This document shows positions 46,729 to 49,031 of a stretch of 64,000 nucleotides of DNA, piece by piece; the stretch's first letter is position 1; the number at the start of each line of letters is the position of its first letter. The notes beneath the pieces are model-generated. The model was not told where the DNA came from. It saw only the letters and a program-made list of their open reading frames with translations, and did not search any database. The position numbers were made by a program, and so were the translations under genes. This stretch comes from Escherichia coli (GTDB lineage Bacteria; Pseudomonadota; Gammaproteobacteria; Enterobacterales; Enterobacteriaceae): NCBI RefSeq assembly GCF_003334315.1, contig NZ_QOWR01000016.1, one strand, 5' to 3'.

Positions 46729-47253
46729 GTGTTGGATAAACTGCGTTCCCGTATTGTGCATTTGGGGCCATCTCTGTTGAGTGTACCGGTAAAACTGACG
46801 CCATTTGCGCTAAAACGCCAGGTTCTTGAGCAGGTCTTAAGCTGGCAATTCCGCCAGGCGCTGGATGATGGCGAGCTGGAGTTTCTTGAAGGCCGCTGGT
46901 TAAGTATTCATGTGCGTGATATTGACCTGCAATGGTTTACCTCGGTGGTGAATGGCAAACTGGTCGTTAGCCAGAACGCGCAAGCTGATGTGAGTTTTAG
47001 TGCCGACGCCAGCGATCTGCTGATGATTGCGGCGCGTAAACAAGATCCGGATACGCTCTTCTTCCAGCGTCGGCTGGTGATTGAAGGCGATACGGAGCTG
47101 GGGCTGTATGTGAAAAACCTGATGGACGCCATTGAACTGGAGCAAATGCCGAAAGCCTTACGCATGATGCTGCTGCAACTGGCGGATTTTGTTGAGGCGG
47201 GAATGAAAACCGCGCCTGAAACCAAACAGACATCGGTAGGTGAACCATGCTAA
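46729..47253 (+). CDS. ubiT: SCP2-domain lipid-binding protein UbiT (YhbT)
   Basis: 174-aa product from GTG start, (M)LDKLRSRIVHLGPSLLSVPVKL; divergent from ubiUV; matches YhbT. Confidence 0.85.
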   Translation: MLDKLRSRIVHLGPSLLSVPVKLTPFALKRQVLEQVLSWQFRQALDDGELEFLEGRWLSIHVRDIDLQWFTSVVNGKLVVSQNAQADVSFSADASDLLMIAARKQDPDTLFFQRRLVIEGDTELGLYVKNLMDAIELEQMPKALRMMLLQLADFVEAGMKTAPETKQTSVGEPC

Positions 47254-47750
47254 TTCGAGTAGAAATTCCCATTGATGCGCCGGGTATTGATGCCCTGCTG
47301 CGTCGCTCATTCGAAAGTGATGCGGAAGCGAAGCTGGTTCACGATCTGCGTGAAGATGGCTTTCTGACGCTGGGGCTGGTGGCGACAGATGACGAAGGTC
47401 AGGTCATTGGCTATGTGGCATTTAGTCCGGTTGATGTGCAGGGCGAAGACCTGCAATGGGTCGGCATGGCACCGTTGGCGGTTGATGAAAAATACCGTGG
47501 ACAGGGGCTGGCACGCCAACTGGTCTATGAAGGACTCGATTCGCTTAATGAGTTCGGCTATGCCGCAGTGGTGACGCTGGGCGATCCGGCGCTGTACAGT
47601 CGTTTCGGCTTTGAACTGGCGGCGCATCACGATCTGCGTTGCCGCTGGCCGGGCACTGAAAGCGCCTTCCAGGTACATCGTTTAGCGGATGACGCGCTGA
47701 ATGGCGTTACCGGCCTGGTTGAGTATCACGAGCATTTCAATCGCTTTTAA
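47247..47750 (+). CDS. yhbS: GNAT-family N-acetyltransferase
   Basis: 167-aa ORF with acetyl-CoA binding motif ([10 protein letters not shown]); matches YhbS. Confidence 0.88.
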
Positions 47751-48039
47751 TCTCCGGGGTTTGCAGACTGCTTAACAGCTCTGCAAACCCTGCGCCTTCC
47801 GCTACCAGACGCTCTTTTTGCCGTTTGGTCAGTTGCTTAACGCGATATTCCGCCCGTAACGCCAGCGAACGATCGCCCACTGGCGCGGAAAACACCAGCG
47901 TTAGTTCTCCTTTCCCGCGCAGTGCTTTCGCCCCTTTGCCGCTTTGGTGCTGCTGATAGCGGCGTTCGACATCCGTGGTGATCCCGGTATAAAGCTTATT
48001 GTCGGCGGTACGGATCAAGTAAAGAAACCAGGGTGTCAT
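47737..48039 (-). CDS. yhbQ: GIY-YIG domain putative endonuclease
   Basis: 100-aa [37 protein letters not shown] = GIY-YIG motif; matches YhbQ. Confidence 0.88.
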
Positions 48040-48089
48040 CGTCTGCGTCGCATGTTAAGGTCAGGCCCACAGTATAAAAGAGAACAGCA

Positions 48090-48533
48090 ATGGAAACACT
48101 CATCGCCATCAGCCGTTGGCTGGCAAAACAACATGTTGTCACTTGGTGTGTGCAGCAGGAAGGGGAACTCTGGTGCGCTAATGCCTTTTATCTTTTTGAT
48201 GCGCAGAAAGTCGCCTTCTACATTTTGACGGAAGAAAAAACGCGCCACGCGCAGATGAGTGGGCCGCAGGCTGCGGTTGCCGGAACGGTAAACGGTCAGC
48301 CGAAAACGGTAGCGTTAATTCGCGGTGTGCAGTTTAAAGGTGAGATCCGCAGGCTGGAAGGTGAGGAAAGCGACCTCGCGCGCAAGGCGTACAATCGTCG
48401 CTTTCCGGTTGCCAGAATGCTGTCGGCCCCGGTGTGGGAAATCCGGCTCGATGAAATCAAATTCACCGACAACACGCTGGGCTTTGGTAAAAAAATGATT
48501 TGGCTACGCGACTCAGGCACCGAGCAGGCGTAA
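48090..48533 (+). CDS. yhbP: UPF0306 / pyridoxamine-phosphate-oxidase-like protein
   Basis: 147-aa [37 protein letters not shown]; matches YhbP. Confidence 0.85.
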
Positions 48534-49031
48534 CGCCTCGCGGTTAAACGCTGGCAGATCGTCCGGTGTCCGGCTGGTAACCAGCTGATCTTTATCAACC
48601 ACGACTTCCTGATCGTAAAATTCCGCGCCCGCATTTTTAACATCAATAATGATCGGTTTAACTGCGGTCAGTTTGCGCCCCCGAATCACATCGGCGCTGA
48701 TCAGCAACTGCGGGCCGTGACAGATGGCAAACACCGGTTTGCCACTATTCACAAAATCACGGGTAAAGGTGACAAAACGGTTGTCCCCACGCAGATAATC
48801 CGGTGAATGGCCGCCCGGTAGCAGCAGGGCATCAAACTCCGCAGGCGTCACTTCATCGATGGATTTATCGATGGTCACGCTGGCTTCTCCTTTTTTGCCT
48901 TTCACCGTTTTACCCGCTTGTTTTTCAATGGTAATCACTTCGTGTCCGGCTTTACGGAACTCGTCTGCGGGTGAAGTAAATTCTGAATCCTCAAATTCAT
49001 CAGTGATTAAAACGGCAATTTTCTTACTCAT
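48513..49031 (-). CDS. yhbO: DJ-1/PfpI-family protein (protein/nucleotide deglycase)
   Basis: Track ORF trimmed to [25 protein letters not shown] giving 172 aa; nucleophile-elbow Cys (AICHGP); matches YhbO. Confidence 0.9.

Follow-up and report, generated by a model that had tools for sequence, protein, structure and literature searches.

Convergent overlaps in the ubiT-yhbS-yhbQ-yhbP-yhbO region of Escherichia coli as probable by-products of gene compaction

The yhbS, yhbQ, yhbP, and yhbO genes of Escherichia coli lie on alternating strands at positions 47247 to 49031 of the 64,000-nucleotide stretch of contig NZ_QOWR01000016.1 that we analyzed (the window), and the coding sequences (CDSs) of its two convergent pairs, yhbS/yhbQ and yhbP/yhbO, overlap at their 3' ends. 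In this study, we show that the region is divided into four or five distinct units, closely packed in both tail-to-tail and head-to-head orientation. The interpretation that we favor, and consider likely, is that this is a known K-12 locus of separately regulated, tightly packed units in which the overlaps are by-products of compaction, cross-talk is of a generic kind, and the four genes do not constitute a dedicated stress module. The genes and their overlaps are already present in public annotation, the overlap of their transcripts is listed in a 2025 catalogue of excludons, and nothing at the locus departs from known kinds of arrangement.

Gene limits and protein families

The RefSeq annotation of E. 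coli K-12 MG1655 (NC_000913.3) served as the reference for coordinates; the window is the reverse strand of that sequence (genome position = 3348005 - window position). Bases 46700 to 49800 are 100% identical to MG1655-type chromosomes, and this stretch was found in 5425 of 5426 complete E. coli genomes. An IS1A insertion lies inside the stretch in strain MSB1_9I (NZ_LR890508.1). The gene limits agree among the open reading frame (ORF) listing, the raw sequence, and two independent RefSeq annotations. The overlaps and the divergent gap that an earlier note on this DNA had reported proved exact to the base when ORFs, sequence, and RefSeq were compared: yhbS and yhbQ share 14 nucleotides (nt) at 47737 to 47750, yhbP and yhbO share 21 nt at 48513 to 48533, and yhbQ and yhbP diverge from a 50-bp spacer at 48040 to 48089.

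The yhbS gene (47247 to 47750, + strand; ORF listing, RefSeq, and Pfam) encodes a protein that matches GNAT Pfam families (PF00583 at an E value of 1.1e-11) and that has been renamed HqbA in published work, where it is described as an acetyltransferase that binds Hfq. yhbQ (47737 to 48039, - strand; ORF listing, RefSeq, and Pfam) encodes a GIY-YIG nuclease (PF01541, residues 4 to 76, E value of 4.5e-16) whose RefSeq product name is DNA damage response nuclease. yhbO (48513 to 49031, - strand; NCBIfam, RefSeq, and literature) encodes a DJ-1/PfpI protein that scores 233.6 bits against the DJ-1/PfpI/YhbO model TIGR01382 (cutoff, 139); deglycase and glyoxalase activities have been published for it, and RefSeq names it protein/nucleic acid deglycase. 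The product of yhbP (48090 to 48533, + strand) scores 267 bits against the NCBIfam "YhbP family" model NF002900 (cutoff, 176), had no Pfam match, and gave no match when its profile was used to search PDB sequences. Its AlphaFold2 model (predicted local distance difference test score, 94.5) was matched by Foldseek to the PNPOx-like/HugZ/ChuZ split barrel (E value of ~1e-7, template modeling score of ~0.7), with 2arz, 5bnc, ChuZ, HugZ, and PNPOx-like proteins among the matches. The domain calls of the earlier note thus hold, by profiles for the GNAT, GIY-YIG, and DJ-1/PfpI proteins and at the level of the fold for YhbP. Its description of the genes as poorly characterized is outdated for YhbS (HqbA) and YhbO (deglycase/glyoxalase).

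Origin of the overlaps

Related loci were gathered by a genome scan with a 13-sequence YhbP alignment, taking one genome per species and the 80 closest species. The E. coli proteins were mapped onto 79 Enterobacteriaceae loci and onto ten more distant YhbP loci (31 to 50% identity); individual loci are given below by L numbers. The four C termini are unequally conserved. The last seven residues are identical to those of E. coli at a fraction of 0.77 in YhbS and 0.94 in YhbO (whole proteins, 0.82 and 0.90), compared with 0.34 in YhbQ and 0.30 in YhbP (whole proteins, 0.73 and 0.74). The yhbS/yhbQ overlap measures exactly 14 nt in 60 of the 79 Enterobacteriaceae species, and some overlap is present in 73. 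The conserved C-terminal Phe-Asn codons of YhbS supply the stop codon of yhbQ (read as TCA or TTA on the + strand), and this accounts for the constant 14 nt so that selection for the overlap itself is not needed. Among the 43 species that have yhbO at the locus, the yhbP/yhbO overlap is 21 nt (23 species), 15 nt (11 species), or 4 nt (5 species), is replaced by a 3-nt gap in one species, and is anomalous in three. YhbP homology ends at residue ~140 to 142 in many species, and the protein ranges from 140 to 152 residues in length.

Given the unequal C-terminal conservation, the yhbQ stop made from YhbS codons, and the variable length of YhbP, the overlaps are best read, from the comparison of these sequences, as unconstrained tails of yhbQ and yhbP that extend into yhbS and yhbO, whose ends are constrained. 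The latter two genes, with their conserved C termini, would "own" the shared bases, and the tails of yhbQ and yhbP would read on to the first stop codon that occurs in the antisense sequence of the neighbor. The locus offers a clean textbook example of a tail-to-tail overlap that comes from an unconstrained C-terminal tail reading into the conserved end of the adjacent gene. Anomalous overlaps of 238, 129, and 79 nt occur between yhbP and yhbO in L002, L021, and L022, and a length of 238 amino acids is seen in some YhbP entries from metagenomes (proteins P0001 and P0004); frameshifts, loss of a stop codon, or errors of assembly probably account for both.

The frequency of such overlaps was estimated from the annotation of five 50-kb samples (250 kb) of NC_000913.3. 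The sample holds 35 convergent CDS pairs, 7 of which overlap; without the present locus, the count is 5 of 33 (~15%). The other five overlapping pairs are cho/ves (41 nt), nudG/ynjH (35 nt), xseA/yfgJ (4 nt), bioP/metR (113 nt), and tatD/rfaH (4 nt), all of which also appear in the published excludon list (PMC12288877). With strand switches at ~0.3 of gene junctions and the ~15% rate of overlap, two overlapping convergent pairs in a row would be expected about once per genome. The cluster is therefore compact yet statistically unremarkable, not clearly above chance.

Transcription units and transcript ends

The yhbS gene is not free-standing but is the second gene of the ubiT operon, a point absent from the earlier note. 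ubiT (46729 to 47253, + strand; RefSeq, and 153 bits against the UbiT model NF047962) is the first gene, and its stop shares the 7 nt ATGCTAA (47247 to 47253) with the start of yhbS. Of 77 related loci that could be scored (L002 to L080), 76 have the same overlap of 7 nt and one has an overlap of 8 nt, which suggests translational coupling in the ubiT-hqbA operon. In published studies, ubiT and yhbS form a single transcription unit by reverse transcription-PCR that is induced by Fnr and is also expressed aerobically in addition to Fnr control, and hqbA is described as highly expressed and induced under anaerobic conditions. Published work describes yhbO, on the other hand, as an RpoS (σS)-dependent stress gene. 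The earlier note raised the possibility that the four genes are co-regulated, perhaps with a common function in stress or repair. These different regulons, the absence of yhbO from 36 of the 79 Enterobacteriaceae loci, and the variety of partners found next to yhbP weigh mostly against this.

The ubiT-yhbS mRNA has a 3' stem-loop at 47757 to 47790 (+ strand), which lies within the codons of the C-terminal tail of YhbQ. It is a perfect 11-bp inverted repeat with a 12-nt loop, recognized by repeat search, folding, and covariation, with a minimum free energy of -25.1 kcal/mol (z of -5.2) and without a U-tract. The same hairpin was reported for the yhbS 3' end in the TRS study, with a dG of -24.9 kcal/mol. 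Covariation across genera is moderate (one pair is GC in 11 sequences and CG in 10), and 62% of the hairpin cells are paired, compared with 33 to 50% in slid controls. Hairpins 3' of the yhbS stop recur in distant lineages with differing sequences, and that of L083 is a canonical terminator. The primary 3' terminus of yhbS maps to 47798 to 47800 (TRS paper, supplementary files 4 to 6; genome position 3300206/7, - strand), ~9 to 10 nt beyond the hairpin. The resulting 3' untranslated region of ~50 nt, as given by the TRS study, ends within the yhbQ CDS at ~47799, and the transcript thus covers the final ~63 nt of yhbQ in antisense. In the published data, the ubiT-hqbA mRNA therefore has its end at this stable hairpin, within yhbQ and ~50 nt beyond the yhbS stop, and the locus is also an example of a 3' stem-loop embedded in the CDS of another gene.

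At the other junction, Adams et al. 2021 (PMC7815308; supplementary file 2) list a Rho-termination region at genome position 3299102 (- strand), with a Rho score of 4.79 and a p value of 2.7e-9. Its center, at a position resolution of hundreds of nt, corresponds to 48903 on the + strand, which is the strand of yhbP; it lies 370 nt past the yhbP stop and antisense within yhbO. RNA of the yhbP strand inside yhbO is untranslated and C-rich (C/G of 1.2), and the Rho region is consistent with such RNA. Transcription of the yhbP strand enters yhbO in the antisense direction and is stopped there by Rho.

The overlap of transcripts at yhbS/yhbQ and yhbP/yhbO is already published. ExcludonFinder (Nucleic Acids Research 2025, PMC12288877) names yhbO-yhbP and yhbQ-yhbS in its Table 1 among 165 convergent MG1655 excludons, the criterion being detection in at least 50% of 58 MG1655 transcriptomes. 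Both pairs are tail-to-tail, opposite-strand neighbors with overlapping transcripts according to the published calls, as convergent excludons are. Since the CDSs themselves overlap, transcripts of the two genes must overlap if both are made. Support for mutual exclusion in that study takes the form of genome-wide trends only. The ExcludonFinder listing, the yhbS 3' end inside yhbQ, and the Rho region antisense in yhbO together bear out the earlier claim that the overlaps imply mutually antisense transcript ends; where data exist, the ends do not lie upstream of the overlaps, which the earlier note had named as the case that would speak against it (yhbS end, ~47799; Rho region, 48903). Any cross-talk would, we infer, be the generic interference or double-stranded RNA of convergent transcription, of the excludon type: strong or anaerobically induced hqbA transcription would oppose yhbQ, and σS-driven yhbO would oppose yhbP.

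Gene-order conservation

The order ubiU(-) ubiT(+) yhbS(+) yhbQ(-) yhbP(+) is essentially universal in the 79 Enterobacteriaceae loci. yhbS-yhbQ-yhbP are kept together in 78 of them; the order is the same in L074, with yhbS and yhbQ ~1.5 kb apart. yhbO occupies the locus in 43 of the 79 species, and the 36 that lack it there include Escherichia albertii and several Citrobacter species. In 31 of the yhbO-less species, yraR directly follows yhbP on the same strand at a spacing of -7 to 93 nt, often with its Shine-Dalgarno sequence inside the end of yhbP. The yhbS-yhbQ-yhbP trio is thus a conserved synteny block in and somewhat beyond the Enterobacteriaceae, with yhbO as a facultative fourth member. 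The gene after yhbP in the distant loci that have the trio is nrdG, yraR (L086), a RidA-like gene, or an orthologue of YhbO (L100), and a DJ-1 gene adjoins YhbP in 1 of the 10 distant loci. In other lineages, yhbP also overlaps convergent neighbors that are different genes, namely, nrdG by 20 nt (L083:4001-4904) and the RidA-like gene by 4 nt (L087:4001-4827).

Several observations weigh against compaction as the whole account. The order of the trio, the yhbS/yhbQ overlap, and the ~50-bp spacer are all strikingly stable across the Enterobacteriaceae. The trio recurs in 4 of the 10 distant loci (L083/84, L086, L087, and L100), the yhbS/yhbQ overlap being kept in L083, L087, and L100, and in L100 the complete set of four genes alternates in the same way as here, with a YhbP that is 45% identical and a YhbO that is 78% identical to those of E. 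coli. The linkage outside the Enterobacteriaceae that the earlier note had looked for is therefore found, for three genes in these loci and for all four in L100. The conservation of the trio exceeds what random packing predicts, and a functional link could underlie it. In addition, the TRS data include no mapped 3' ends of yhbQ, yhbP, or yhbO, the TERMITe and SMRT-Cappable-seq supplements yielded neither 3' ends nor transcription units for the genes of the locus, and the curated Term-seq ends of Adams et al. between genome positions 3298900 and 3300699 include none for these genes. If these points are taken furthest, the yhbS-yhbQ-yhbP core would be a real regulatory unit, to which the overlap, the embedded hairpin, the fixed ~50-bp yhbQ/yhbP spacer, and the palindrome that many genera have in that spacer would all contribute: oxygen- or Fnr-driven hqbA transcription would gate the YhbQ nuclease through convergent interference, overlapping back-to-back promoters would govern yhbQ together with yhbP (a heme- or flavin-type split-barrel protein), and the changing partner of yhbP (yhbO, nrdG, ridA, or yraR) would supply a second antisense input that differs among lineages and is limited by Rho. 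We regard such a unit as very unlikely. A convergent layout that gates YhbQ by oxygen or stationary phase would provide a physiological handle on the uncharacterized YhbQ and YhbP. As it stands, the finding matters little.

The divergent spacer

The start codons of yhbQ and yhbP are only 50 bp apart, and the spacer contains back-to-back -10-like hexamers, TATAAA on the + strand and TATACT and TAACAT on the - strand. The short distance and the overlap of these hexamers lead us to think that the two promoters probably overlap, an assignment drawn by inference only from the letters; a consensus promoter scan of the intergenic regions gave nothing useful. The spacer measures 49 to 55 bp in most Enterobacteriaceae. 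In many genera (L016 to L058 and others), including Enterobacter, Klebsiella, Kosakonia, and Leclercia, it contains a palindrome, AAGGTG-N4-CACCTT/CACCAT, beside a TAGCAT/TAACAT hexamer. Escherichia, Citrobacter, and Salmonella have lost the palindrome and have CAGTATAAAAGAG in its place. The palindrome could be an operator or a hairpin of the 5' untranslated region.

Alternative explanations

Both pairs could be dedicated excludon switches in which Fnr-driven or high-level transcription of ubiT-hqbA shuts off the YhbQ nuclease and yhbP is in mutual exclusion with σS-driven yhbO, a mechanism that would work by collision of RNA polymerases, cleavage of the RNA duplex by RNase III, or both. The presence of both pairs in the published excludome (PMC12288877), the hqbA transcript end inside yhbQ, the strong and anaerobically induced expression of hqbA, the persistence of the yhbS/yhbQ overlap in 73 of 79 species and in L083, L087, and L100, and the recurrence of a post-yhbS hairpin with differing sequences all agree with such switches. 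However, the YhbS codons alone account for the conserved 14 nt, convergent pairs with CDS overlap score as excludons automatically, and the partner of yhbP is interchangeable or absent, so that switches of this kind are unlikely. A shared pathway for stress or repair that joins the GNAT, GIY-YIG, PNPOx-like, and DJ-1 proteins, for example, in the repair of glycated or damaged nucleic acid, appears highly improbable. The RefSeq names (DNA damage response nuclease for YhbQ and protein/nucleic acid deglycase for YhbO), the four-gene order in the distant L100, and the trio in 4 of 10 distant loci are what speak for it. Against these stand the facts that YhbS/HqbA acts on Hfq and belongs to the ubiT operon, that the regulons differ (Fnr and RpoS), that 36 of the 79 Enterobacteriaceae lack yhbO at the locus, and that a single one of the 10 distant loci has DJ-1 beside YhbP.

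Two further explanations concern one junction each. The hairpin at 47757 to 47790 is a perfect palindrome without a U-tract, the hqbA 3' end lies ~9 to 10 nt beyond it, and the published description of overlapping bidirectional, collision-driven terminators of the Ju/Wang type fits it; on this basis, it could end both hqbA and yhbQ transcripts. We consider this role quite unlikely. Read on the yhbQ strand, the hairpin comes before the yhbQ stop codon (47739 to 47737) and therefore cannot be a symmetric bidirectional terminator: termination there would produce a nonstop yhbQ mRNA. In members of the class, both 3' ends flank the element past both stop codons, whereas the end mapped at this hairpin is that of yhbS; the searched mapped-end data hold no yhbQ 3' end, and the hqbA end could equally result from exonucleolytic trimming to the hairpin after Rho termination. 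At the yhbP junction, yhbO might have been inserted antisense into an ancestral yhbP-yraR operon, with E. coli keeping the Rho-insulated remnant of a noncontiguous operon. The 31 yhbO-less species in which yraR follows yhbP, an outgroup (L086) in which yhbP is followed by yraR, and the Rho region of the yhbP strand inside yhbO point in this direction, and we first favored the idea. It was downgraded because another outgroup, L100, already has yhbP and yhbO convergent, with a 33-nt gap, and with L100 taken into account, repeated losses of yhbO are no less likely than insertion. The locus is also outside the three noncontiguous operons reported by ExcludonFinder (PMC12288877), among which yhbP-[yhbO]-yraR does not appear. 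Insertion now seems rather improbable to us. Separately regulated units packed closely together, with overlaps as by-products, are the reading that we retain.

Relation to known systems

Both pairs are named members of the MG1655 convergent excludons (PMC12288877), which are neighboring opposite-strand genes at short or negative distance with overlapping transcripts; they do not differ in kind from the rest of that class, and here the CDSs themselves overlap. The same is true of cho/ves, nudG/ynjH, xseA/yfgJ, bioP/metR, and tatD/rfaH, convergent CDS overlaps of 4 to 113 nt that are likewise called excludons, whereas the present locus has two such overlaps back to back with a 50-bp divergent spacer between them. 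The yhbS/yhbQ junction resembles the overlapping bidirectional terminators (Ju et al. 2019; Wang et al., bioRxiv 10.1101/2022.10.23.513370) in its palindromic hairpin without a U-tract and the defined 3' end just past it, and differs from them in that the hairpin falls within the yhbQ ORF, before the stop codon. The RNA of the yhbP strand in yhbO is a typical, bicyclomycin-sensitive case of Rho termination of antisense or untranslated read-through (Adams et al. 2021, PMC7815308), a process for which that paper also cites Peters et al. 2012.

Other features of the locus

Two terminator-like sites are predicted in the yhbP/yhbO pair. One, a hairpin with a T-rich tail at 48571 to 48597 (+ strand), lies 38 nt past the yhbP stop, inside the yhbO CDS, where its bases code for QLVTSR, a conserved stretch of YhbO. 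The + strand hairpin itself (48571 to 48587) was considered as the yhbP terminator and set aside, as it codes for the conserved LVTSR of YhbO and has no mapped 3' end; it is kept as a prediction. The other, a 5-bp stem followed by T6 at 48231 to 48253 (- strand), is inside the yhbP CDS ~260 nt past the yhbO stop and overlaps the conserved TRH codons of yhbP. The next gene in the window is yraR (49159 to 49794, + strand; RefSeq). The yhbP-yraR junction of E. albertii (L008), CCTATAGTTAAAC, resembles that of yhbO-less Citrobacter (L005/L009/L014), CTATAGTTAGAA, a likeness that hints at a shared deletion allele or recombination.

PADLOC gave no defense-system match for any of the four proteins (YhbS, YhbQ, YhbP, and YhbO). 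Rfam gave one subthreshold match, to CRISPR-DR22 at 46661 to 46697 (- strand) in the ubiU-ubiT intergenic region, which at 21.9 bits (gathering threshold, 50; E value of 0.32) is almost certainly due to chance.

The top structural matches of YhbP are heme-binding or heme-degrading split barrels (MSMEG_6519, ChuZ, HugZ, and HutZ) rather than PNP oxidase proper, and His53 is invariant across 35 homologues. Binding of heme or another tetrapyrrole is a candidate function, suggested by the structural model, that is worth testing. A YhbP homologue with 45% identity (L099:3501-3938) is found between nifB/nifQ-like genes and an ApbE gene, beside a sigma-54 activator, which suggests a paralogue recruited to a nitrogen-fixation cluster.

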